64,000 nt of DNA, from NCBI GenBank assembly GCA_044360075.1, contig JBIKLA010000005.1, forward strand, positions 84,095 through 148,094. The letters are read 5' to 3'. The stretch is from Bdellovibrionota bacterium (GTDB taxonomy: Bacteria; Bdellovibrionota_C; UBA2361; OMII01). The notes beneath the pieces were generated by a model. The model was not told the origin of the DNA. It ran no database searches and worked only from the letters and a program-made list of their open reading frames with translations. Positions 15,130 through 26,376 of this stretch are shown in pieces. A program made the position numbers and the translations under genes. How positions within the stretch are numbered: position 1 is the first letter of the stretch; each line of letters opens with the position of its first letter.

Positions 15130-15162
15130 GCAGCGCTCCAGCCGCGTCCCGTGATGCCCGGC

Positions 15163-17635
15163 TTACTTGCACACCGTTTCGGTGGTCGGCAGCTCGTTGA
15201 GGTTATCCAAGCCCTTGCGCTCTAGTTCCTTGGCTTTGCGAACGAGCGCGTCACGTCTGTTGGTCGAGCCGGTCTTGCGGAAGTACGCGCGGGCGATCGT
15301 TCGCTGCGCCTGGTTACGGGCGCTCGCAATGAGGCCCTTGAGCCGGGCGATGGTTTCTGTCCTGTCGACGGTCTCGCAATAAAGCGGCGCCTCTGGACAG
15401 TTTTTGATTACATCCGGGAATTGGATGGTTAAGCGGTTGGAGGCGGCAACAAATCCGTCCGCCTTGGCGCGTGCGCGCTGTGCGTCAGCTGCGGCACTAC
15501 CAGAGTCTTCTTCCGACGCCGCTTCAAGCACGTCTGCGGCCTCTTTTGTCAGGTTCGCAAGCTGAACCGTAATTTCGTCAAGCTCCCCTCGAGCTGCCCC
15601 GACAGCCGTATCGACACACTGGCCGTCACACACAGGAAGGCTTTCGTCCGCAACGGCTTTCCTGCCGTTGAGGTTCCAGTCTACCTGGGCTCCCGTCGAC
15701 GGAATGGTCACGTTGAAGAGGCCGGGATTGAGCCCAGAGAAGAAGACCGAGGGCTGGCCTCGGAAAGCCGGCACCGGTGCCATGAAGTTAAGGCCCCCTA
15801 CAGGGATCTCAACCGGGAACGGGTTGGGATTGCTGTATCCCGCCTTCGCCGTCAGCACTTGGTTGTTGAACCCCCGGCACGAGAACGCCGGCTCAACCAT
15901 TTGGCACTTTGGTGTTGATGCCGAGGCAGTGGCACGGGACTCAGCAGAGCGCGGGGCGCGAACGGTCCATGTGATCTCCGCCTCGCTGAACGATATCGCG
16001 ACGAGGCCCTTTTGGACCCCTGGCGCAAAAGCGGTCGGTTGCCCACGATCCTCTGCGCCGCTTGTGAAGCGATTAGTGACGACCGGCAAGCCGGACGACC
16101 CAACCGACATGAAAAACGTTTCCTGAGTCGTGTTGTTGTAGCTGAAGTAAGCCATACGGGAGCCATCGATATTATCCATGACACACTCAACCGAAAGGGA
16201 AAGCAGCGTACTATCGTCTCCCTCGTTGTTGTCTTGCGAGCTTGAGCAGCCGCCGTCAGCGAGGTCAGGCGCGCCATCAGCGTCGTTGTCGACCCCGTCC
16301 TGGCACTGGGCTTTCGGCGAGGATTCATCGCGGTCCTGCGGGCTTGAGCAGCTAAAGTCAGACGGGAAGTCAGCGGCACCATCGCCGTCGTTGTCGACCC
16401 CGTCCTGGCATTGGGAGGTGCCATCGCTCTCGTTGTCATCCTGCCTGCTTGAGCACCCCGGATCATTCAAGTCCGTCATGCCATCGTTGTCGTTGTCGAC
16501 GCCGTCTTGGCAGCTTGCCTTGGGCAGCGCCTCGTCGTTGTCCAGGGCACTTGAGCAGCTAAAGTCCGCCGGGTAGTCAGCCGCACCATCGTTGTCGTTG
16601 TCGAGGCCGTCCCGGCACTGCGGGGTGCCGTCTCCCTCGTTGTTGTCCTGGTTGCTGGAGCATCCAGGGTCATTAGAGTCGGTGACGCCGTCGTTGTCGT
16701 TGTCCACGCCATCTTGGCATTGAGACTTCGGTGAGCTCTCGTCGGTGTCCTGCGAGCTTGAGCAGCTAAAGTCCGCTGGGTAGTCAGCTGCGCCATCGTT
16801 GTCGTTATCGATGCCGTCCTGGCATTGAGACCGTGGCGAGCTCTCGTCGGGATCCTGGGGACTTGAGCAACTAGCGTCAGCCGGGAAGTCGGTTGCACCA
16901 TCGTTATCGTTGTCGATACCGTCCTGGCACTGCGACTTCGGCGAGCTCTCGTTGGTGTCCTGCGGGCTTGAGCAGCTAAAGTCAGCTGGATAGTCAGCCG
17001 CACCATCGTTATCGTTGTCGATGCCGTCCTGGCACTGCGAGGTGCCATCACCCTCGTTATTGCCTTGGTTGCTCGAGCACCCCGGATCATTGAGGTCGGT
17101 CAGGCCGTCCCCGTCGTTGTCGGCGCCGTCCTGGCACTGTGGCCGTGGATTCGCCTCGTCGTTGTCGCTTGCACTTGAGCAGCTGGTGTCCGCCGGGTAG
17201 TCGCGGGCGCCGTCGCCATCGTTGTCAATCCCATCGGCGCAAGCAGGAGTAACGCAATTGCACTGTACGTTCGTGACGTTGGCAGGATTACCAACCGCCT
17301 TCGCATTGGAGAGAACCTTTTGCTCGCCCGCCTCTCGGGCCGCAAAGTAGCAGTGAGTGTTGTTACCGGGGCTGCGGAAGGTGCCCGTGAGTACCGCCGA
17401 GTAGGTGAGAGACTCCCTGCTCGCAGCGCCGAGGGCAACCCGGCAAACCTCGCGAATCTCTTTGTCTTGGGCACTGACGCCGTCACAGCCCGCAACTCCG
17501 AAGTAGTTTTTTGCCTGGTAGTATCCGACGTATATGCTCTGGATCGCGCACTGGGCTTGGGCAATTTGCGGGATTAGTGAGCTGGACAAGACAGAAAGGA
17601 TCAGAGCCTTGAGGAGCTTAGGAGTACGCATCATG
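15163..17635 (-). CDS. secreted Ca-binding repeat protein (10 thrombospondin-type-3-like DxDxDG repeats, Cys-rich)
   Basis: Signal peptide MMRTPKLLKALILSVLSSSLIPQIAQA; alternating 34/35-aa repeats CQDG(I/V)DNDNDG...; the ATG start at 17633-17635 was chosen rather than the upstream in-frame extension. Confidence 0.7.
16200..17240. repeat. ~1-kb tandem DNA repeat (period ~105/210 bp) encoding the TSP3-like protein repeats
   Basis: The visible nucleotide periodicity matches the 34/35-aa alternating protein repeats. Confidence 0.7.
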
Positions 17636-18045
17636 GGATATCTCACGCGATAAACAACTTTGGAGCAACGATACAACAGTTGGCGGAAACCGACCGAAAC
17701 CAGGCGCAACAACCCAAAAAACCACGATTGAAATAATCCGATTGGGGCAAAAGAGCAAATCACAGGTGACTTTTGTTACCAACCAATTTTCCCTCTGTAG
17801 CCAGGCTCCACGCCCACCGAAGCCACAAGCCAGCCGTCCCCCAAACGGCCGCAAGCCGAGGAGGAGATGAGCACGAGCGGTGGACAGAAGATACACGTCC
17901 CCCTAGCGTCCCGGAGAACGCGTGAGCGGTGTGGATGGTGTGCCTACGCCCTGAAGACGTTGGCGAGCTTCGGCATAGACGGGGGGAACAGCCCGGGCGG
18001 ATCGCGCACAGAGGTGCCTCCCTGGTGCCATCTCTCTCTAGGCGA

Positions 18046-18470
18046 ACAAAGTAGCCCGGCTACAGGCGAAGAGGGGGAGGCGAGTCGTCCGGCTACATAC
18101 AGGAAAGGCGAAGGCGAAGTAGCCCGGCTACATGCAGATGCAGAGATGCAGAGTAGTAGCCCGGCTACAGGCGAGGGAGTAGCCCGGCCACATACAGGCG
18201 GACATACAGGCGCAGGCCCACCTGCAGGCGCGAGAAATATAGTTGTTTCATTAGCTTAGTCTTGCAGAGTAGTAGCCCGGCTACAGGCGAATACAGGCGA
18301 GGCGAGTAGCCCGGCTACAGGCGAAGGCGAAGGCGAAGTAGCCCGGCTACATGCAGATGCAGAGATGCAGGGTAGTAGCCCGGCTACATACAGGCGGACA
18401 TACAGGAGCAAGGAGCAGGCCCACCTGCAGGCGCGAGAAGTGTAGTTGTTTCATTAGCTTAGTCTTCTGG
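18046..18470. repeat. array of nine GTAGC-CYG-GCTAC near-palindromic 13-nt motifs at 32-37 bp spacing, including a ~212-bp tandem duplication
   Basis: The motif AGTAGCCCGGCTACA recurs at ~18050, 18085 (degenerate), 18118, 18155, 18180, 18271, 18306, 18338 and 18374. The block 18100-18262 is repeated at 18312-18470. Confidence 0.75.
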
Positions 18471-18545
18471 CGGCACGCTAAGGCCTGGAGGTTCCATATC
18501 GTTTGGGTCAGTTTCTTTTTTTCGACCCTCTGTTGAGGAAGATGT

Positions 18546-21059
18546 ATGACTCAGGACCACGACCAGCGGCCAAAAGGCGGTGCTGGGCAAGACCGGGATC
18601 GGCAGTCAGCTCGTCATGAGGCGGGAACCCCCGCCCCGTTGGACCTATCTGCGGCAACCGGCGTTGGCGAAGCGTGCACGACGGCCTCCGTACTGCGCAA
18701 GTTGCACGCCTACCTTAATGATGCCGAGAAGGGAGCAGCCTCCGTGCTTCGGGACCCGCAGGTCGGCGTTGTGCAGGATCTCCACGAGTTTTATCGCCAG
18801 GACAAGACGTGGGGATTTATCAAGCTTCCGACTGGGTCCGGCAAGACGGTCATCTTTGCTGAGATCGCTGAGGCACTTAATCTTCCGACCCTCGTCGTCG
18901 TGCCCAAGATTGGAATAGGGGACCAAACTGTTAACACCTTCCGCAAGTTCGCCCCTGACATGAAGGTCTCCCCGATTTTTGCGGGACAGCACGACGACAG
19001 TGGGCAGGTAGTTGTGACTACCTACCAGTATCTTGCGCAGGCAGCTCAGGATGGTCGGCTCGACCTCTCGCGATTTCAGTTTGTGATTCTCGACGAGGCA
19101 CATAAAAGTCTCGGCACCGAGATGCTTAAGGTCCTTGAAAGCATAGAGGACTCAACGAGAGTGCTCGGCTTCACTGCGACCGACACGTACAACGAGGAGA
19201 AGAACCTTGAGGCGCTGCTCGGTGAGTGCATATCCGACATGCCTATCTCGAGCGCCGTAAAACTGGGAATGCTGACACCGATCTCCGTCATCGTGGCGAA
19301 GACCACCATCGACGTAAGCGACGTGGAGATTAAAGCTAGTGGCGAGTACGACGAGCGCGCTCTCGAAAAGCGCATTCTGGCTGCCGGAATAAACAAGGCC
19401 TGCCTCGACACGTACAAAGCCGGCTTTGACGGCAAGAGCGCCATCGCTTTCTGCACGAGTGTTGCGCACGCCGAGGAGGCCGCAGAGATTTTCAACGAAA
19501 GCGGAGTCCCTTCTGCGGCGGTGAGCGGCTCGTTATCGCGAAAGGAGCAGGCGCGCATCCTTGAGGAGTACCGCAGCGGAAAGATAAAGGTTCTCTTTAA
19601 CGCTGACCTACTCATCGAGGGATTCGACGCGGAGATTGCCTCGGTGTGCCTCAACATGGCGCCGACCGGCTCGCTAATCGTAGCAGAGCAGAGAGCTGGC
19701 CGGGCGTTTCGCCTCAATCCGGGCGACTCGAGCAAGGTGGGATACGTCGTCGAATTCGTTTACGACGATGCGCGGCGACAGTCGCCGGTAATTCTCTACT
19801 CGGACATCATCGGCGGGACCGCCTGCCCACCGCCCGGGCAGTTGGCAAGCGCCGCAAAGGCAGAGATGGACTCAACGATTGAGAAGCTTAGCCGCTCTCA
19901 GATCGAGGGACTCACCATACACGTCGACGCAAGCTCCGTTCTTGAGATCGCAGCGAAGCTTAAACCTGCAACGTTCGTTGCATCTCCCCCGGATGGCTGG
20001 ATTTCGACGTCTGAGCTTGGGCGCTCCCTGCGCGCATCCCTCTCTACCGTCATGAAGATGATCAGCACCCTCACGCCGGAGGAGGAAAAGAGAGTGCCCC
20101 TCGACCAGCACTGCGGCCACTATCGCGCCCCGTCCACCGGACGGCTGTCGCTCCATTGCTCACCTGAATTGGCCGAACTCATTGCAGCCAAGCGCCGAGA
20201 GTTTGAGCCCCCGCAGGGATGGATGACCATAACTGCCATCGCAGAGCTCTTTTCGGTGCCTCCCAGTAAGGTTCAGCCGGTGCTTCGGGAGGTTGCAGCG
20301 GGCAGTCCCGACATGATTCGGCAGTACGCTATTCGGCGTGGCGGCCTGCGTGAGCACTACTCACCCGAGTGCATAGAAGCCGCGCGTGAGCATCTGCGGG
20401 TCAATCCAGAGAAGTTGCCGATGTTTTCTTCGGCTTCCGTTGCATCCAAGTGCAAGGTTCCTGACTTTGTGATGAGGTCATGGGTGCGCGAGCTGGTTGA
20501 AAGTGGGGAGCTGTACGAGGTTATTAAGCTCAGCAAGACCGGCAAGCCGACGTTGCGCATTACCCAGCAGCCAGGCGCTGAGAAGAAGATGCGCGATAAG
20601 GCGATCGCGTTTCATGGGCGTGACCTCGAGCAGGAGCGCTCACTGGATGAGATCGCGAAGGACATGAATGTAGGTGTCTCCAAGGTTGCCGACGCTCTTG
20701 CGCGCCGTTTTGGAAGGGCGCCGCAGCCCTCAGACACGTCAGTTCCGCTGGATCTTGAGGAGCCCCTGAAGCGCATAGTGGCGTCTGAGTCGACGGGACC
20801 ACTGCCGGAGTGGGTGATGTCAAACGACCTCGCTAGAGAGGCCCAAGACATGCTGTCGTCCTTTCCCATAGCAACCGGCATTGCTAGGAACATCATTCAA
20901 AAACGGCTGGACGCTCTCATCAGCCGCCTTCCCGAGTATCACCGACTTCCATTTCGTGATCCCGCTTCGGGAGCCACACGCGACTACTACTCGCCGCAGT
21001 TCTCCAAGCTTTTCCTGGACCCTGAGCACTGGCGTGATCTCGCCGAAGAGTATCAGTAA
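18546..21059 (+). CDS. SF2 DEAH-box helicase (Res/XPB-like core) with a ~400-aa uncharacterised C-terminal region
   Basis: Walker A LPTGSGKT, motif II ILDEAHKS, motif VI QRAGRAFR; the C-terminal half has no recognisable motifs. Confidence 0.75.
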   Translation: MTQDHDQRPKGGAGQDRDRQSARHEAGTPAPLDLSAATGVGEACTTASVLRKLHAYLNDAEKGAASVLRDPQVGVVQDLHEFYRQDKTWGFIKLPTGSGKTVIFAEIAEALNLPTLVVVPKIGIGDQTVNTFRKFAPDMKVSPIFAGQHDDSGQVVVTTYQYLAQAAQDGRLDLSRFQFVILDEAHKSLGTEMLKVLESIEDSTRVLGFTATDTYNEEKNLEALLGECISDMPISSAVKLGMLTPISVIVAKTTIDVSDVEIKASGEYDERALEKRILAAGINKACLDTYKAGFDGKSAIAFCTSVAHAEEAAEIFNESGVPSAAVSGSLSRKEQARILEEYRSGKIKVLFNADLLIEGFDAEIASVCLNMAPTGSLIVAEQRAGRAFRLNPGDSSKVGYVVEFVYDDARRQSPVILYSDIIGGTACPPPGQLASAAKAEMDSTIEKLSRSQIEGLTIHVDASSVLEIAAKLKPATFVASPPDGWISTSELGRSLRASLSTVMKMISTLTPEEEKRVPLDQHCGHYRAPSTGRLSLHCSPELAELIAAKRREFEPPQGWMTITAIAELFSVPPSKVQPVLREVAAGSPDMIRQYAIRRGGLREHYSPECIEAAREHLRVNPEKLPMFSSASVASKCKVPDFVMRSWVRELVESGELYEVIKLSKTGKPTLRITQQPGAEKKMRDKAIAFHGRDLEQERSLDEIAKDMNVGVSKVADALARRFGRAPQPSDTSVPLDLEEPLKRIVASESTGPLPEWVMSNDLAREAQDMLSSFPIATGIARNIIQKRLDALISRLPEYHRLPFRDPASGATRDYYSPQFSKLFLDPEHWRDLAEEYQ

Positions 21060-21081
21060 GCGCCAAGCGGCGCATCATTCC

Positions 21082-24000
21082 CTAAGGAGCTGGTGGCTGG
21101 ACGGCCCCTTGCGGTGGTTTCGCAGGTACGGTTGTGCCAAGAATTCGTTCAACGTGTAGCAGGTCCACGGGCTTCGTTAAGTGCTCTGAAAAGCCCGCCT
21201 CCTGTGCTCGCGCCTTGTCCTCGGCGGCACCCCAGCCGGTAAGCGCAATGAGGGTCACCTCGTCACCATGCGGGAGCTTTCGTATCGCTTTGGCCGCCTC
21301 ATAGCCCGACATTCCGGGCAGCCCGATGTCGAGAAAGATGACGCGCGGAAGCGGGGCTTTGAGGCTCTCAAGAGCCTCCTCTGCCGAGTGGGCGACGTCG
21401 ACCGTATGTCCCATCATCGACATGAAGAGCGCGAGGCTCTCAGCTCCGTCCTCGTTGTCATCGACGACGAGGACCCGCTGTGAGATAAAAGGCGCGGGCT
21501 CGGCGGGCGCTGGCGGCGCGGAAGGGATAACGACCGTCTCCGCGGCATAAACGGGGAGGTGGACGATGAAGGTGCTGCCTTTGTCCTCACCGTCGCTTGA
21601 TGCGCGAACATCGCCTCCGTGCAGCTCCGCGATCTTTCTCACAAGAGCGAGCCCGATCCCGAGGCCGCCCTGAGAGCGCTCAAGCGTCTTGTTCACTTGC
21701 CCAAACATGTTAAAGACTGACTCCAACATGTCAGGGGGTATGCCTAATCCGTTATCCTTAATCGTAATCTGGGCCGTGCCGTTTTGTCGGGACACAATGA
21801 GTGAGATGGTGCCGCCATCCGGGGTGTACTTGGCGGCGTTGCTCAGGAGGTTGGTTATCACCTGGCAGAGGCGGACGGTATCACCCCGCAGCTTGATAGG
21901 CTGCTCAGGCATATGAACATGGAGGGTGTGATTAGCTGCGTTTATGATTGGGCGTGAAGCCTCCACTGCTGACTCGACGATCTCCTGGAGAACGAGGTCG
22001 CCGTGTTTTAGCCGCAGACGCCCCTGCGTTATGCGCGCCACGTCAAAGAGGTCGTCGATGAGGCGAACCATGTGCTCAACCTGGCGCTGCATGATCTCTC
22101 GTGTCCGAGGCGCCTCGGGACCGAAGGGGTTTTTCTTGAGCAGCGACAATCCGGTGCGGATCGGGGCAAGGGGGTTCCGCAGCTCGTGGGCGAGCGTTGC
22201 AAGGAACTCATCCTTGCGCTGCGCCGCAAGGCGCAGCGTCTCCCGAGCCTCGCGCTGTTCAGAGATGTCGGTCTGGATGCCTAAAGCCCGCAGCGGCCTG
22301 CCGCTGGGGTCTCGCTCAACTACTCGGCCGCGCCCCAGGGTCCAGAGCCACGATCCGTCTTTCTTTTTAAGGCGGTACTCCGCCTCGTATGCTGGCTTCT
22401 TGCCATCCAGTTGAGCTTTAAGCTCCTTAAGGACACCGGGCATGTCATCGGGATGGACGAGCGACTCCCATGAGTGGATGGTGGGCGCAACTTCTTTGGG
22501 GTCATAGCCAAGCATGGAGAACCACAAGCCACCATATTCGACGGATTCAGTCGAGATCTTCCAGTCCCAAAAGCCAAGCTGGCCGGCCTCAAGGACGAGC
22601 TCGAGGCGGCGGCGGTCCTCCTCGACCTGCCGCAGGAGATTCAGCCTGTCGGTTGTGTCGAAAGCGGCGCCGATCAGGCGAGTTGGTGCCCCGTCCGAAT
22701 CATAGTAAATTGCGCCAGAGGATTCGATCGAGTGTACACGCTCGTCTGGAGATCGGAATCGGTACAAGCCATAGAAAGCTGGGTCATGCCTCTTAAAGCG
22801 CTCCTGGAGGTCAGCCTCAATTATCTTCACGTCCTCGGCGAAGGCAAGGGCCGCCCAATCGCTGTAAGAAAAGCCAGGCTGTCCGCTTTGCACGCTGTGA
22901 AGGGCGTACATCTGCTCGGACCAGATCAGGTTGTTGGTCTTGATGTCCCAGTCCCATAGTCCCACCTTGCCGGCCCGCTCGGCCAGCCGAATGCGGGTAG
23001 TCTCCTCCTCAAGCTTAGAGACTAAGAAGGTGCGCTCTAGCAGCATCGCTATTGAATGCAGAACCACCTCCCGCAGCTCTGCCGTACAGCTCTCATCCTC
23101 GTGCTGCTGGCAGGGATAAAAACAAACGACGAATCCCCAGCGATTGCCGGGCGATAAGCGTATCGCCCGAATGCGCGAAGCGCAGAGGCTCCGGGCGGAG
23201 CACGCGGCCGAGGTCTCCGCATCAAAGAAGGCAGCGAGATCTGAGAGCGTCACGTCATCCTTGTCAGCGCCTGCCGTGATAAGGGCGCGCCGATTGTGCT
23301 CAGATGCAAGGTGCTCGAAGAGCACCTGAGTGTCATCCGCTCCCGGTGAGGGATACTGATGCACTGTATTGCGGCGGGTGCCCTCCTCAATGATGCAGCA
23401 GATATCCCCCGGAAGGAGCTCGCGAGCCACCTCCGAGAGTGCTTGCGCGATGGTATCGACTCCGGCGCCCGCTCTGGCAAGGTCGACGATCCGTCGCTGG
23501 AAGGCGAGCTTGCTTCGCAGTTTCTGCTCGCTGTTGCGCGCCTCGGTGAGCTCACTCACGTCGCGCAACGCATACGAGAGGCGACTTGCTACAATAAGGT
23601 CGCGCTGTATCGGCACCACCTCTCCCACGAACCAGCGGCGCTGTCCCTCGTGTATTACGGAGCCCTTGAAATAAATGGGCTTGCGCTCGGCGAGGCTCTC
23701 GCGGCACCTCTCAAGCAGCAAGGCATCAAGGTTCTTGCCAACAGGAAGCTCGGAAGATCGCTTGCCGACACTCTCGCCAGGGGGGACTCCATAGAACCGG
23801 CAGGCGCTGTCGCTGTCGTAGATGTGGCGAAGCTCACCATCTTCAGGGCTCACGATACCCATAAGCATGGTTGACTGCGACATGAATGACGCGGTGAGCT
23901 GCTTGCGGGCATGCGCGGCTACAAGCGCCACGGGCAGCGGGGACCGGTGGTGCTTCCAGTTGAGCCAGACGGATCTTATGATTGCGCCAACAACAAGTAA

Positions 24001-24180
24001 TTCGACGATTCCCAGGACCGTGACCGCCTGGAGCTGCCCTTCAAAGGGCTTCTTGATTACAAACGCCAACGCTGTGCCAATCCCGGCCGCAACGACGAGT
24101 CCGAACAGGGCGCGCTGCTTATGGCTGGGGGAGCCGGGATTTCGGTAGTCTAGGTCTGAGCTTGACGGCGACCATTTCAT
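21082..24180 (-). CDS. hybrid sensor histidine kinase (2 TM, GAF/PAS x3, HisKA, HATPase, C-terminal receiver)
   Basis: H-box LATLAHELRNPLAPI; N/G boxes (NLLSNAAKYT, GGLGIGL); receiver VLVVDDNED...FLDIGLPGMSG. Confidence 0.85.
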   Translation of the reverse strand: MKWSPSSSDLDYRNPGSPSHKQRALFGLVVAAGIGTALAFVIKKPFEGQLQAVTVLGIVELLVVGAIIRSVWLNWKHHRSPLPVALVAAHARKQLTASFMSQSTMLMGIVSPEDGELRHIYDSDSACRFYGVPPGESVGKRSSELPVGKNLDALLLERCRESLAERKPIYFKGSVIHEGQRRWFVGEVVPIQRDLIVASRLSYALRDVSELTEARNSEQKLRSKLAFQRRIVDLARAGAGVDTIAQALSEVARELLPGDICCIIEEGTRRNTVHQYPSPGADDTQVLFEHLASEHNRRALITAGADKDDVTLSDLAAFFDAETSAACSARSLCASRIRAIRLSPGNRWGFVVCFYPCQQHEDESCTAELREVVLHSIAMLLERTFLVSKLEEETTRIRLAERAGKVGLWDWDIKTNNLIWSEQMYALHSVQSGQPGFSYSDWAALAFAEDVKIIEADLQERFKRHDPAFYGLYRFRSPDERVHSIESSGAIYYDSDGAPTRLIGAAFDTTDRLNLLRQVEEDRRRLELVLEAGQLGFWDWKISTESVEYGGLWFSMLGYDPKEVAPTIHSWESLVHPDDMPGVLKELKAQLDGKKPAYEAEYRLKKKDGSWLWTLGRGRVVERDPSGRPLRALGIQTDISEQREARETLRLAAQRKDEFLATLAHELRNPLAPIRTGLSLLKKNPFGPEAPRTREIMQRQVEHMVRLIDDLFDVARITQGRLRLKHGDLVLQEIVESAVEASRPIINAANHTLHVHMPEQPIKLRGDTVRLCQVITNLLSNAAKYTPDGGTISLIVSRQNGTAQITIKDNGLGIPPDMLESVFNMFGQVNKTLERSQGGLGIGLALVRKIAELHGGDVRASSDGEDKGSTFIVHLPVYAAETVVIPSAPPAPAEPAPFISQRVLVVDDNEDGAESLALFMSMMGHTVDVAHSAEEALESLKAPLPRVIFLDIGLPGMSGYEAAKAIRKLPHGDEVTLIALTGWGAAEDKARAQEAGFSEHLTKPVDLLHVERILGTTVPAKPPQGAVQPPAP

Positions 24181-24294: not shown

Positions 24295-26376
24295 CTAAAA
24301 CTGGAGTGTGCCCCGCGTAGACTCGTCGAAGTAGGCCTCAGCCTGCTTGCGGTACACGCGGGCGTATTCGCCGTTGCTTGCGAGGAGCGCCTCGTGGCTT
24401 CCGAACTCCTTGATGGTGCCGCCCCCGAGAACGATGATGAGGTCACAGTTGCGGAGCTGGTCGAGCTTGTGGGTCACCAGCGCGAAGGTCCTCTTGCCGG
24501 GGAAGTCAAAGAGAGCCTTGTTGATCTCAATCTGCATGTCGGGATCGAGCTTGGCGGTGTGCTCATCGAGGGAGCAAAACTTGGCGCCAGTTGCGATCGT
24601 GCGCGCGATGCAGATCAGCTGCTGCTGGCCGCCCGAAAAGCTTTTGCCGTGTTCAAACTGCGAGCCGTTGATAGTCTTTAGCCCAAGGGGCTTGTCGTGA
24701 AAGAGTACCTGGCGGATGCCGAGCGTGTCGACAACCTCTTCCGCAGCCATGCCGCCGACCTCGGGCCGCACGCCGAGCTCGATGATGTCCTCAACTGAGA
24801 GGCCCGGGAATGCCTCGTAGTCCTGAGTGAGGTGGGCCCCGAACACGCGGTTGTGCCGAAGGTCGTGGCAGCCGATAACCACCTTGCCAGAGGAGGGCTC
24901 AAGGCGGCCTGAGAGAAGCTTAATCAGGGTCGACTTGCCTGTGCCGTTGGGCCCGATGATGCCCACCTTGGAGCCACCAGGGATGACGATCTGTCCCGGA
25001 ATGTTGAGGGTGTCCCTCCGCGCGCCTGGGTAGCGCAGCCGAACATCCTCAAGCACGATATCGGGCGCCTGATCGAGCAGCTGAAACGTCTTGCCGTCGT
25101 TTAGCTTCTCGGACATCTCAAGAAGCTGGTAACGCAGCGAGGCGAACTCAAGCTTTGTGACCTGCCTGCTGAACAGGTCCGAGAGGGCGTTGATATCGCC
25201 CTTGACCGAGTAGAGCGAGTAGACGAGCCACAAGCAGGTTGCAGGAGAGATGTCGCCCACCATCGCACTCATGACGACCCCGGCATACGACACCGATACG
25301 AGCGCCTCACAGCCAAAGTCAGAGACGAGATCATCGGCGAGATTCTTGATGGTCGCGGCTCGCCGAATGGCGTAGCTGTTGCGGCTCCAATCCATCACCT
25401 TTTCGACCATGCGCTTTGAGGCAGCGAGGAGGCTTAGGTCGGTGAGTCCGCTGTTGTTGAGCAGCGAGGTTCTGCCGTAATTGACCCGCTGGTCGAACGC
25501 GGATGCCGAATCCTCCGCCTCAATCGAGCGCCCAGAGCACCGCACGGCGCAGCCGTAGGCGAGCCAGCCGCCAAGAAATACCGGGAGGGTCCATAGCCCG
25601 TACCCGCTTAAGATGATCGCACCGGTAGTGATGCCGAGCTCAATCATCTGCTTGCTACCAGAGAAGCTGCCCTCAACGAGCGAGCGAATCGAGTACTCGT
25701 TGCGGCGGATCTTGGTAAGGATCTTTTGCACATCCCGTCGCTCGACGACCTCGGGCGGGAGGTTTGTAGTTGCCTCGAAGATGGACTCGGAGAGATATGG
25801 CTCAATCTTCTCGGTGTGACGCTCCGAGGCGACATCCTCCTTGTACTGAAGGTACCGGTATGCCACTGCCGTAAGGATGCTCGCACCGAGCCACCAGAAG
25901 ACCCCGTTGGCTCCAGCCGGATCCGTCGCTACCTCACCGGCAAGCCCCAGCGTCTTCGAGGTGGCAAACGAGCTTGCCACGAGAGCAACGGCGCCAACGG
26001 TCGTGTAGGCGAGTCGCCTGGACCATGTGTCCTTCGTCTGGTTCCACGCCTCAGAGATGCTTCGCAGATAGTCCTTAAAGAGAGATCGCTCTCCCGTTGA
26101 CGCGATCAGCTCTGACACCGCAAGCTCGGGTCGGGTCTCGCGTGCGGGGTGCTGCTCTAGGTCATTGGCGGCAGTGAGGAGCTGCTTTGGGTGCTCAAGG
26201 TCCGCGATCGGGGCTTGGGGAGCTTGGCCTTCAGGCGAAGCAATGGGCGCGGGAACGGGCGTGTCGCCCTTTGGCTCGTTCGGTTTGTTGTCCGGCGCCT
26301 GAGAGCGCTCGATAAAGCCCATGCGAATTTCCCAACCCTGCAACAAAAAACGTTGCTGGATCGCTCGTGTTAACAC
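24295..26376 (-). CDS. ABC exporter, fused permease and ATPase
   Basis: Six-TM N-terminal domain; Walker A GPNGTGKST; signature FSGGQQQ; Walker B; the start may be the internal MGFIERS. Confidence 0.85.
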   Translation of the reverse strand: MLTRAIQQRFLLQGWEIRMGFIERSQAPDNKPNEPKGDTPVPAPIASPEGQAPQAPIADLEHPKQLLTAANDLEQHPARETRPELAVSELIASTGERSLFKDYLRSISEAWNQTKDTWSRRLAYTTVGAVALVASSFATSKTLGLAGEVATDPAGANGVFWWLGASILTAVAYRYLQYKEDVASERHTEKIEPYLSESIFEATTNLPPEVVERRDVQKILTKIRRNEYSIRSLVEGSFSGSKQMIELGITTGAIILSGYGLWTLPVFLGGWLAYGCAVRCSGRSIEAEDSASAFDQRVNYGRTSLLNNSGLTDLSLLAASKRMVEKVMDWSRNSYAIRRAATIKNLADDLVSDFGCEALVSVSYAGVVMSAMVGDISPATCLWLVYSLYSVKGDINALSDLFSRQVTKLEFASLRYQLLEMSEKLNDGKTFQLLDQAPDIVLEDVRLRYPGARRDTLNIPGQIVIPGGSKVGIIGPNGTGKSTLIKLLSGRLEPSSGKVVIGCHDLRHNRVFGAHLTQDYEAFPGLSVEDIIELGVRPEVGGMAAEEVVDTLGIRQVLFHDKPLGLKTINGSQFEHGKSFSGGQQQLICIARTIATGAKFCSLDEHTAKLDPDMQIEINKALFDFPGKRTFALVTHKLDQLRNCDLIIVLGGGTIKEFGSHEALLASNGEYARVYRKQAEAYFDESTRGTLQF

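Follow-up and report, generated by a model that had tools for sequence, protein, structure and literature searches.

Among the superfamily 2 (SF2) enzymes with solved structures, three come closest to the gene treated here, namely RadD (YejH), a repair helicase/ATPase of E. coli (PDB 6jde, 7r7j, 8h5y), XPB/Rad25, represented by archaeal XPB-Bax1 and the XPB of TFIIH, and the type IV restriction enzyme SauUSI (PDB 7clg; mREase_IV in PADLOC). The gene in question is located in a 64,000-nt stretch of DNA from a Bdellovibrionota bacterium (assembly GCA_044360075.1, contig JBIKLA010000005.1, positions 84,095 to 148,094), in the following referred to as the window, and encodes an 837-aa protein with an SF2 helicase core and a C-terminal tail of about 400 residues. 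In an earlier note on this stretch, residues 430-837 had been described as showing no familiar motifs. This can be revised, as a repeat hidden Markov model (HMM) and AlphaFold2 (AF2) models resolve residues 482-837 into five tandem, rigidly packed modules of about 70 aa with a predicted winged helix-turn-helix (wHTH) fold. On balance, we lean towards reading the gene product as an ATP-driven DNA translocase that would be targeted or anchored by this array.

RadD is the best match of the motor in structural comparison as well as among the NCBIfam models, and both proteins are of the DEAH/ResIII type and encoded by stand-alone genes. However, the window protein scores only 97.1 bits (E = 7.8e-28) with the RadD equivalog model NF053632, which has a cut-off of 720, and this match is restricted to the core (residues 68-395), so that it is not a RadD ortholog. 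RadD has a cluster of zinc-finger cysteines as well as a C-terminal domain of its own. In contrast, the window protein does not contain a single CxxC pair in its 837 aa, hence no RadD-like zinc finger, and five predicted wHTH repeats take the place of the RadD C-terminal domain. XPB has a homologous ResIII-type double-stranded DNA (dsDNA) translocase core, and some members of the helicase family match ERCC3_RAD25_C. The window protein, however, reaches 56.8 bits against the cut-off of 610 of NF045503, lacks the RED tripeptide as well as a damage-recognition domain and has no Bax1-like partner gene nearby. SauUSI, finally, is the top match among PDB sequences (1.4e-16) and in PADLOC (1.6e-16) and may share with the window protein the logic of a motor followed by a C-terminal DNA-recognition region. 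Nevertheless, the window protein is devoid of the N-terminal PLD nuclease domain, its tail is a predicted wHTH array and not the SauUSI target-recognition domain, a reader of modified bases, and the matches cover only residues about 78-405. Since the family cut-offs are missed and CxxC, RED and a nuclease domain are lacking, the protein represents a DNA motor of the ResIII type that is akin to RadD, XPB and SauUSI without belonging to any of these families.

Motor and tail of the window protein

The gene is not a chance open reading frame (ORF), as an identical protein (P0001) is encoded on an independent Logan contig (L004), an ortholog from a sister species (L092) is 83% identical over the full length, and the ratio of nonsynonymous to synonymous substitutions (dN/dS, Nei-Gojobori) between the latter and the window gene is low. 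Hence, this is a genuine gene subject to purifying selection; dN/dS amounts to 0.08 for the whole gene, to 0.033 for the core and to 0.15 for residues 482-837, values that are rough at a dS of about 1. The ATG start codon is preceded by a Shine-Dalgarno-like GAGGA element, and the last 75-90 bp or so before it are the sole intergenic stretch conserved with the L092 ortholog. A scan for a simple sigma-70 consensus upstream of the gene gave no match, terminator-like matches from the promoter/terminator scan were uninformative, and Rfam and tRNA scans of the window remained empty. The protein is acidic as a whole (pI 5.6). Its N-terminus appears in the AF2 model as a disordered stretch plus two helices, of which residues 1-38 are probably disordered; residues 1-66 are the least conserved part in comparison with L092 (74% identity).

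Both RecA-like domains and the SF2 motifs I, Ia, II, III, V and VI are present in the protein (Table 1), and the positions of the catalytic motifs are invariant in an alignment of 34 family sequences (A1). The complete DEAH helicase core that had been recognized before from GSGKT, DEAH and QRAGR is thus confirmed, with ResIII and Helicase_C as the matching Pfam models. Outside the core, no above-threshold match was obtained in the Pfam scan, and no nuclease domain was found. Following SauUSI, the core matches RadD (3.4e-16) and archaeal XPB (1e-13) among the PDB sequences. With the full model as Foldseek query, RadD (6jde) was best (E = 4.5e-17, 22% identity, about 379 columns), followed by SauUSI, XPB, the type ISP enzyme LlaBIII and HsdR, with every alignment restricted to about 380 core columns. 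The strongest profile match of the core is to the PHROG family phrog_16, annotated as DNA helicase (7.9e-62, 210 bits, residues 67-410), but only profile positions 272-604 of 986 are covered. Likewise, tblastn retrieved 1,976 phage records whose cores are 25-30% identical, none of them covering more than 52% of the query, and in phage records and IMG/VR contigs taken together cores of 21-35% identity were found, never the tail, with viral contigs reaching only about residue 446. In contrast to phage replication-module helicases, the window gene is chromosomal, syntenic with relatives and not part of a prophage.

Motor and repeat array are joined by a linker with the family consensus I.GL.V..DAEEVMR, which evolves slowly (dN/dS 0.024) and precedes in identical type the alternative C-terminal modules of sister helicases.

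The period of about 70 residues in the tail was revealed by the family alignment (PEGW.T....ELxxxxxT........R...P..F.......G...EHYSPELV..I), and the signature P-x-G-W ... [HY]-[YC]-S-P-[EQ] can be read in the window protein at 482/537, 556/604 and 754/814. A self-BLASTP of residues 421-837 did not detect an internal repeat, the period being visible only via the family alignment and the HMM. AF2 was applied to the full-length protein with the family alignment (pLDDT, predicted local distance difference test, 84.3; pTM, predicted template modelling score, 0.59) and to the tail alone (residues 475-837; pLDDT 91.3, pTM 0.77), and both models show the same succession of elements per module, i.e. 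a short beta strand, two helices, a beta-hairpin and a further helix. As modelled, this is the topology of a two-helix HTH with wing of the excisionase/MerR type. The sequence signature is lost in modules R3 and R4, where the repeat HMM is not significant. R3 is modelled with helices 629-636 and 640-652, a hairpin of strands 656-662 and 668-674, and helix 678-690; R4 with strand 697-699, helices 700-706 and 711-722, a wing reduced to one short strand (732-734), and helix 735-746. For R5, helices 759-770 and 781-792 and a hairpin of strands 800-804 and 811-815 are predicted. R4 is also the fastest-evolving module (dN/dS 0.32). The net charges of R3, R4 and R5 are +6, -4 and -3, respectively.

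Searches with the tail and with single repeats against Pfam gave only sub-threshold HTH matches of 13-18 bits, at cut-offs of 27. Weak matches of the tail comprise an excisionase-type HTH (TIGR01764) at residues 485-507 of R1, the Pfam models Rv2175c_wHTH, TrmB, IclR and HTH_17 at 558-582 of R2, and HTH_29 and Sigma70_r4_2 at about 748-775 (positions 274-300 of the tail query starting at residue 475); RacA and MerR were found in the single-repeat searches. In line with this, the excisionase/MerR-type wHTH domains (HTH_17, MerR, TIGR01764, RacA, Rv2175c wHTH) share the topology of the module and match it weakly in sequence. In contrast to MerR and Xis, however, the module has a signature of its own and occurs in tandem arrays of up to 15 copies. 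To our knowledge, long tandem arrays are not a property of MerR or Xis domains. The closest PDB folds to the tail, all non-significant (E > 0.03), are for the most part those of multi-winged-helix proteins (Pol III RPC3/C82, ScpB, SarS, MarR-type regulators, DnaD-N, the BLM RQC domain), and TFIIE and TFIIH subunits are also among them. In a comparison with predicted viral structures, the tail came closest to actinophage proteins annotated as HTH DNA binding, namely a protein of phage ChewyVIII with a two-module match (probability 1.00, 141 columns) and one of phage Shandong1 matching a single module (root-mean-square deviation 3.0 over 71 columns).

Table 1. Features of the helicase gene and of its surroundings (positions in the window).
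Feature	Residues	Position	Strand	Basis or remark
Complete helicase gene, ATG start	1-837 + stop	18546-21059	+	ORF list and translation
N-terminal extension	1-38	18546-18659	+	AF2 pLDDT <50
RecA-like domain 1 (ResIII)	67-212	18744-19181	+	Pfam 4.6e-26, 92 bits (cut-off 22.5)
Walker A, GSGKT	97-101	18834-18848	+	
Motif Ia, VVVPK	117-121	18894-18908	+	
Walker B, DEAH	183-186	19092-19103	+	
Motif III, TAT	210-212	19173-19181	+	
RecA-like domain 2 (Helicase_C)	295-390	19428-19715	+	Pfam 1.7e-14, 54 bits (cut-off 23.5)
Motif V, LIEGFD	356-361	19611-19628	+	
Motif VI, QRAGR	382-386	19689-19703	+	
Linker (helix, strand, helix)	431-481	19836-19988	+	A1 consensus; DSSP of AF2 model
Module R1, PDGW ... 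HCSPEL	482-555	19989-20210	+	Repeat HMM, E = 8e-11
Module R2, PQGW ... HYSPEC	556-621	20211-20408	+	Repeat HMM, E = 7e-15
Degenerate module R3	622-692	20409-20621	+	Structure only
Degenerate module R4	693-750	20622-20795	+	Structure only
Module R5 and C-terminal helix, PEWV ... YYSPQF	751-837	20796-21056	+	HMM 754-824, E = 1.7e-4
Conserved leader/promoter-proximal region with GAGGA, about 75-90 bp		18470-18545	+	Comparison with L092
Array of GTAGCCCGGCTAC palindromes, not part of the mechanism		18040-18470		Includes tandem duplication of about 220 bp
Accessory segment of about 5.9 kb between RNB and kinase genes		15130-21081		Synteny versus L090, L091
866-aa ORF		15163-17763	-	No Pfam or PHROG match

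The PEGW-HYSPEL repeat family and its fusion partners

For describing the repeat, an HMM was seeded by eight clean copies in a Daviesbacteria homolog (P0016) and iterated over the fetched proteins. It comprises 68 positions (consensus PEGWLTNSALAKELGVSRKTIKKIAEKYREEHPEWFKEYKDKSGRVREHYSPELVEIIKE....), the family consensus of the module being PEGW...GVS..T...YR..HPEWF...G...EHYSPELV, and detects 1,094 copies, which are distributed over 182 of the 244 sequences scanned (the query and 243 fetched proteins). The proteins with copies stem mainly from MAGs (metagenome-assembled genomes) of Patescibacteria and Bdellovibrionota-like bacteria. By its tandem matches to the iterated HMM, three of them significant, the window protein belongs to the repeat family. 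With the 417-residue tail as query of an exhaustive phmmer search, 249 clusters (50% identity) are reached at E <= 1e-3 and 137 at E <= 1e-10. The module is not described by any model in Pfam, NCBIfam or PHROG, the repeat profile (A3) found nothing below E = 0.1 among PDB sequences, and in the searchable literature (tandem-HTH helicases, INT_rpt) no description of the helicase plus wHTH-array architecture or of the repeat family was found. The motor is of a known kind, and the tail represents a repeat family lacking a public model or solved structure.

In 931 aligned copies, the most conserved positions are W4, L10, Y28, P33, W35, F36, Y39, Y50, P52 and L54, and S17..T20 forms a helix-start signature. 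The conserved set of the HMM comprises an invariant W4, furthermore Y28, R29, P33, W35 and F36, then G44, and finally E48, H49, Y50, S51, P52, E53 and L54. Lysine and arginine are enriched (same 931 copies) in helix 2 at positions 22 and 23 (41 and 56%), at R29 (70%) and in the wing at positions 37, 40, 42 and 45 (38-52%), a pattern that is compatible with DNA contacts made by the recognition helix and the wing.

A helicase core is found in 63 of the fetched repeat proteins, which bear 1-10 repeats (median 5), and is absent from the other 119 with 4-15 repeats. The latter belong to three types. The first consists of repeats only. In the second (P0104, P0111, P0128 and about 40 other clusters), 4-15 repeats follow an N-terminal domain of about 245 aa with the motifs ILPP.EGE..G.G.G...IPR, MMR..SY and NDEEGNATFV, for which no match was found in Pfam (one representative) or PDB (domain profile). 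Proteins of the third type (e.g. P0106, P0110, P0113, P0144) have 1,400-1,800 aa and contain, besides 6-14 N-terminal repeats and a conserved helical stretch, an SNF2 ATPase as well as Helicase_C and an S-adenosylmethionine (SAM) methyltransferase; if named at the source, they are termed SNF2-related protein and nothing else. Likewise, the cluster names of ten repeat proteins do not go beyond hypothetical protein or SNF2-related protein.

Within the helicase clade, the tail itself is variable. In a 1051-aa protein from Patescibacteria (P0025), motor and three PEGW repeats are followed by sigma-70 regions 2 and 4, and sigma-70 region 4 is also present in two further Patescibacteria homologs (P0061, P0066); the covalent linkage of an XPB/RadD-like translocase to a sigma factor is unusual. 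In four homologs (P0030, P0039, P0040, P0041), arrays of INT_rpt (PF14882, integrase repeat unit) replace the PEGW repeats, with the signature F...L..EV....I.....Y...YK.H.GWPS.P...Y...W.GW..FLG; P0041 carries four tandem units (110 bits) after the linker. Two unrelated repeat types are thus seen as alternative tails of one motor. Besides, a SAP/Ish1-like motif is located at the post-linker position of P0054, and P0007 and P0009 pass the whole-protein cut-offs of Pfam HTH_29, HTH_28 and HTH_23 via their summed repeats. The common theme is a motor that stays conserved while the DNA-binding or transcription modules at its C-terminal side are exchanged. Judged by these sequence associations, the PEGW repeat is a portable module on DNA-acting enzymes, and since the tail is swapped within the helicase clade and the repeat is also attached to SNF2-methyltransferases, it may well represent a portable DNA-targeting module.

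Taking motor and tail together, the gene product can be described as a stand-alone, horizontally mobile accessory SF2 ATPase, whose wHTH array would be the nucleic-acid binding or targeting part, with dsDNA as the most likely ligand. The array would anchor or steer the ATP-driven translocase/helicase on DNA, and the motor would then unwind, translocate along or strip proteins from the DNA where the array binds. Such an activity might serve repair or recombination, remodelling linked to transcription, or a defence directed at mobile DNA. Binding of DNA by the array is suggested by the fold class, the basic helix 2 and wing, the attachment to DNA enzymes and the fact that the same position can be taken by other DNA-binding modules. 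As the modules are near neutral overall, however, we only infer this binding. Several points weigh against the proposed translocase. The repeats, with a mean charge of +0.8 in the family and negative values in R4 and R5, and the acidic nature of the whole protein are atypical of non-specific DNA binders, and their most conserved positions determine the fold and are not on the surface. Moreover, the window protein stays below the cut-off of every Pfam HTH model, the tail did not give a Foldseek match in PDB at E <= 1e-3, and the sequence of the motor alone does not tell DNA from RNA preference.

A much bolder version, which we consider a long shot, would have the PEGW-HYSPEL repeats as a modular, array-forming system of DNA recognition in episymbiotic and predatory bacteria (Patescibacteria, Bdellovibrionota-like), each module recognizing a short piece of DNA. 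By way of arrays of 3-15 modules, the translocase, the SNF2-methyltransferase giants and, in some cases, a covalently fused sigma factor would be brought to long specific sites, and the sigma-fused and related helicases would be a bacterial counterpart of the promoter-opening translocase XPB in TFIIH.

Genomic context and distribution

On one side, the helicase gene is neighboured in the window by genes for an aminopeptidase, PyrF (pyrF) and an RNase II-like RNB protein and by an 866-aa ORF on the minus strand, on the other side by genes for a hybrid kinase, an ATP-binding cassette (ABC) ATPase, a TylF-type methyltransferase and a glycosyltransferase. The convergence on a sensor kinase gene mentioned in the earlier note was seen again; it encodes a hybrid PAS/HisKA/HATPase/receiver kinase and is located at 21082-24180, facing the 3' end of the helicase gene. 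In agreement with the same note, a nuclease, methyltransferase or other partner gene is not visible adjacent to the helicase, neither in the window nor in surveys of its neighbours.

Comparison with related loci delimits an accessory segment (Table 1) that holds the 866-aa ORF, an intergenic region and the helicase gene. The loci L090 and L091, whose RNB proteins are 72-73% identical to that of the window, are collinear with it from the genes for cofactor-independent phosphoglycerate mutase (iPGM), a tetratricopeptide repeat (TPR) protein, MinE, MinD, MinC and PgpA to the aminopeptidase, pyrF and RNB genes, and L090 also beyond the insertion (kinase, TylF, glycosyltransferase). In both, the RNB gene directly abuts the convergent kinase gene, within which L091 ends, and a helicase gene is lacking; in L090, the gap is 36 bp. 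At L092/L093 (RNB 82% identical), both extra genes are present. As it is missing at the syntenic site in L090/L091 and present in L092/L093, the helicase gene is located in an accessory segment, which was either gained in a common ancestor of the two species or lost elsewhere. The homologs of the RNB protein are encoded in metagenome-assembled genomes (MAGs) labelled Deltaproteobacteria or Pseudomonadota. Comparison with L090 (250 kb) also showed a second extra block in the window (24295-26376) with an ABC-ATPase-like 693-aa ORF; in addition, the hybrid kinase is longer in the window (1032 versus 754 aa).

The 866-aa ORF, the true start of which is probably M44 (about 17634), codes for a secreted protein that bears a signal peptide, about ten calcium-binding-like Cys-rich repeats of the type CQDG.DND.DG..D..D..CSS and a C-terminal domain, and is 80% identical to its L092 ortholog. 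It was considered as the missing partner and rejected, being a secreted protein with Cys-rich DND.DG repeats that does not adjoin any other homolog. PHROGs did not contain a family for the tail or the upstream ORFs.

At 86 homolog loci, clustering of the neighbours did not reveal a recurrent partner, the best family occurring in 11, and a tblastn search with the window proteins against all homolog loci did not find a conserved one. In the eight contexts annotated with Pfam, the neighbours are genes of ordinary metabolism and housekeeping (among others those for transketolase, spermine synthase, BipA, MnmA, QueG and Dus), and restriction, CRISPR, toxin or integrase genes were not among them. 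Hence, the helicase is a stand-alone accessory gene. The nearest non-syntenic homologs (P0002, and L007 of a Deltaproteobacteria MAG sampled from Lake Zurich) are 57-58% identical and reside in a different context. Others are encoded mostly in Patescibacteria, furthermore in Bdellovibrionota MAGs, Ca. Enterousia, further gut MAGs of Alphaproteobacteria and a single MAG of Aenigmatarchaeota, i.e. the distribution of the helicase family is patchy across lineages. Throughout loci L007-L086, a concentration in episymbiotic or predatory lineages with small genomes is apparent, for which a function tied to lifestyle or horizontal transfer from partner to partner may account. Among the close Patescibacteria-like matches, some labels of uncultured Gammaproteobacteria MAGs look doubtful.

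Alternative roles and significance

In the earlier note, the gene had been placed among the single-gene helicase fusions frequent in phage-defence and repair accessory systems. The status of a single, accessory and patchily distributed gene has held up, whereas an association with defence islands was not found in the 86 loci and the eight contexts. Equally, housekeeping genes surround the family members but do not form a conserved operon with them, nor does the tail correspond to any known domain of repair proteins. With neither of these established, a defence or repair role is still conceivable.

Specifically, the protein could be an anti-phage or anti-plasmid helicase acting as a single gene. 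In that case, invading DNA would be sensed or bound by the variable array, and the motor would stop its replication or call in nucleases of the host. We regard this as unlikely, though it is a candidate to be taken seriously. The accessory and patchy occurrence, the location in an inserted segment, the faster evolution of the tail compared to the motor (dN/dS 0.15-0.32 versus 0.03), the number of repeats varying from 1 to 10 among the helicases and the type IV restriction (SauUSI-like) helicase cores as best PADLOC matches, with SauUSI also a close structural neighbour, would fit a defence function. Moreover, tandem wHTHs on ATPases and other enzymes of BREX (BrxA, PglW, BrxC) have been read as extended surfaces for binding or scanning DNA (PMC12839542). 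However, family members show only faint precomputed matches to WHD_BrxR, and BREX genes are not present near the window helicase. A nuclease or other effector domain is missing, and residues 84-405 align with profile positions about 240-566 of the 945-953 of mREase_IV, to which the protein thus does not belong; DrmD of DISARM, DpdF of Dpd, BrxHI/HII of BREX, PbeA of Pbe and Cas3 likewise gave partial core matches only, and genes of these systems were not found nearby. Besides the lack of defence genes and recurrent partners, integrase or mobile-element genes do not flank the gene, viral contigs and phage records show a generic core only, and the co-inserted gene encodes an unrelated secreted protein.

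A translocase associated with transcription, recruited via the HTH array to promoters or RNA polymerase for opening promoters or clearing stalled complexes, appears improbable. It would be analogous to XPB in TFIIH, RapA and Mfd. The resemblance of the core to XPB, the fusion of helicase, PEGW repeats and sigma-70 in P0025, the sigma-70 region 4 in P0061 and P0066 and the weak fold matches of the tail to RPC3/C82, TFIIE and TFIIH subunits point in this direction. On the other hand, sigma domains are found in only three of about 100 homologs and not in the window protein, the multi-winged-helix fold matches are non-significant, a motif for interaction with RNA polymerase was not identified, and the protein fails the XPB model and lacks its RED motif.

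With conserved positions that determine the fold rather than lie on the surface, the array could also be a scaffold for proteins or RNA, and the enzyme a helicase remodelling RNA or ribonucleoproteins. The near-neutral repeats with mostly hydrophobic conserved residues would agree with this, as would the DEAD-box RNA helicases among the weaker structural matches of the core and the RNase II-like gene nearby. We nevertheless give this proposal little credence, as the core is of the DEAH/ResIII type with the DNA enzymes RadD, SauUSI, XPB and phage DNA helicases as best matches, and the fusion partners of the repeat are DNA enzymes as well (SNF2, methyltransferase, sigma). The RNB gene adjoins the helicase only because the latter was inserted there, and is not a neighbour at other loci.

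Upstream of the helicase gene, the earlier note had recorded an array of palindromes, and indeed eight exact copies of GTAGCCCGGCTAC and one with a single mismatch are found at 18051-18387 (chance expectation 0.04), with a duplication inside the array (18105-18263 and 18324-18466). A link to the gene does not follow from this position, as the array was found neither in the intergenic region of the 83%-identical L092 ortholog nor upstream of the homologs L005, L006 and L007, and a metagenome scan detected the same 15-mer in arrays at unrelated loci of similar G+C content. At L128 (2180-3060) six copies and at L147 (3280-3440) five exact 15-mer copies are present, with short, differing spacers. 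Just upstream of the array, a 95-nt non-coding segment (17942-18036) is 81% identical to L128:1153-1247; without a match in Rfam, it could represent either a small RNA or another portion of the mobile or repeated element to which the array belongs. Hence, the array looks like a dispersed REP-like, MITE-like or mobile intergenic repeat of the lineage. Since it is absent from orthologs and homologs and occurs at unrelated loci, it is, on this comparison, unrelated to the helicase system, of which the neighbouring genes are not part either. Two ORFs spanning the array on the plus strand (130 aa, 17867-18259; 61 aa, 18351-18536) do not match any family and, lying in non-conserved repeat DNA, are almost certainly not genes. 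That the HTH modules bind these palindromes for autoregulation or as an iteron-like loading site of the helicase, as their number directly upstream of a protein with five such modules might suggest, is highly improbable, and the array was rejected as a binding site on the comparative grounds just given (L092, L005-L007), including the REP-like dispersal beside unrelated genes at L128 and L147.

The reading as a DNA translocase targeted or anchored by its wHTH array is thus retained as the favoured one. For annotation, the gene should not be called RadD or XPB, nor should it be counted as a defence gene on present evidence, and the adjacent palindrome array is to be treated as an unrelated dispersed repeat. 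The outcome is the discovery of a domain together with the correction of likely mis-annotations (RadD, XPB, defence helicase), which is not surprising in principle. A supposedly featureless region of 400 residues is now a defined repeat family with a predicted wHTH fold and without an entry in Pfam, NCBIfam or PDB, which is joined to two SF2 motor families as well as to a methyltransferase and a sigma factor and is concentrated in poorly understood lineages, i.e. Patescibacteria, Bdellovibrionota-like Deltaproteobacteria and Ca. Enterousia. Should the array bind DNA as proposed, it would be a compact model for giving a generic translocase target specificity, and the family may supply portable DNA-binding repeats.

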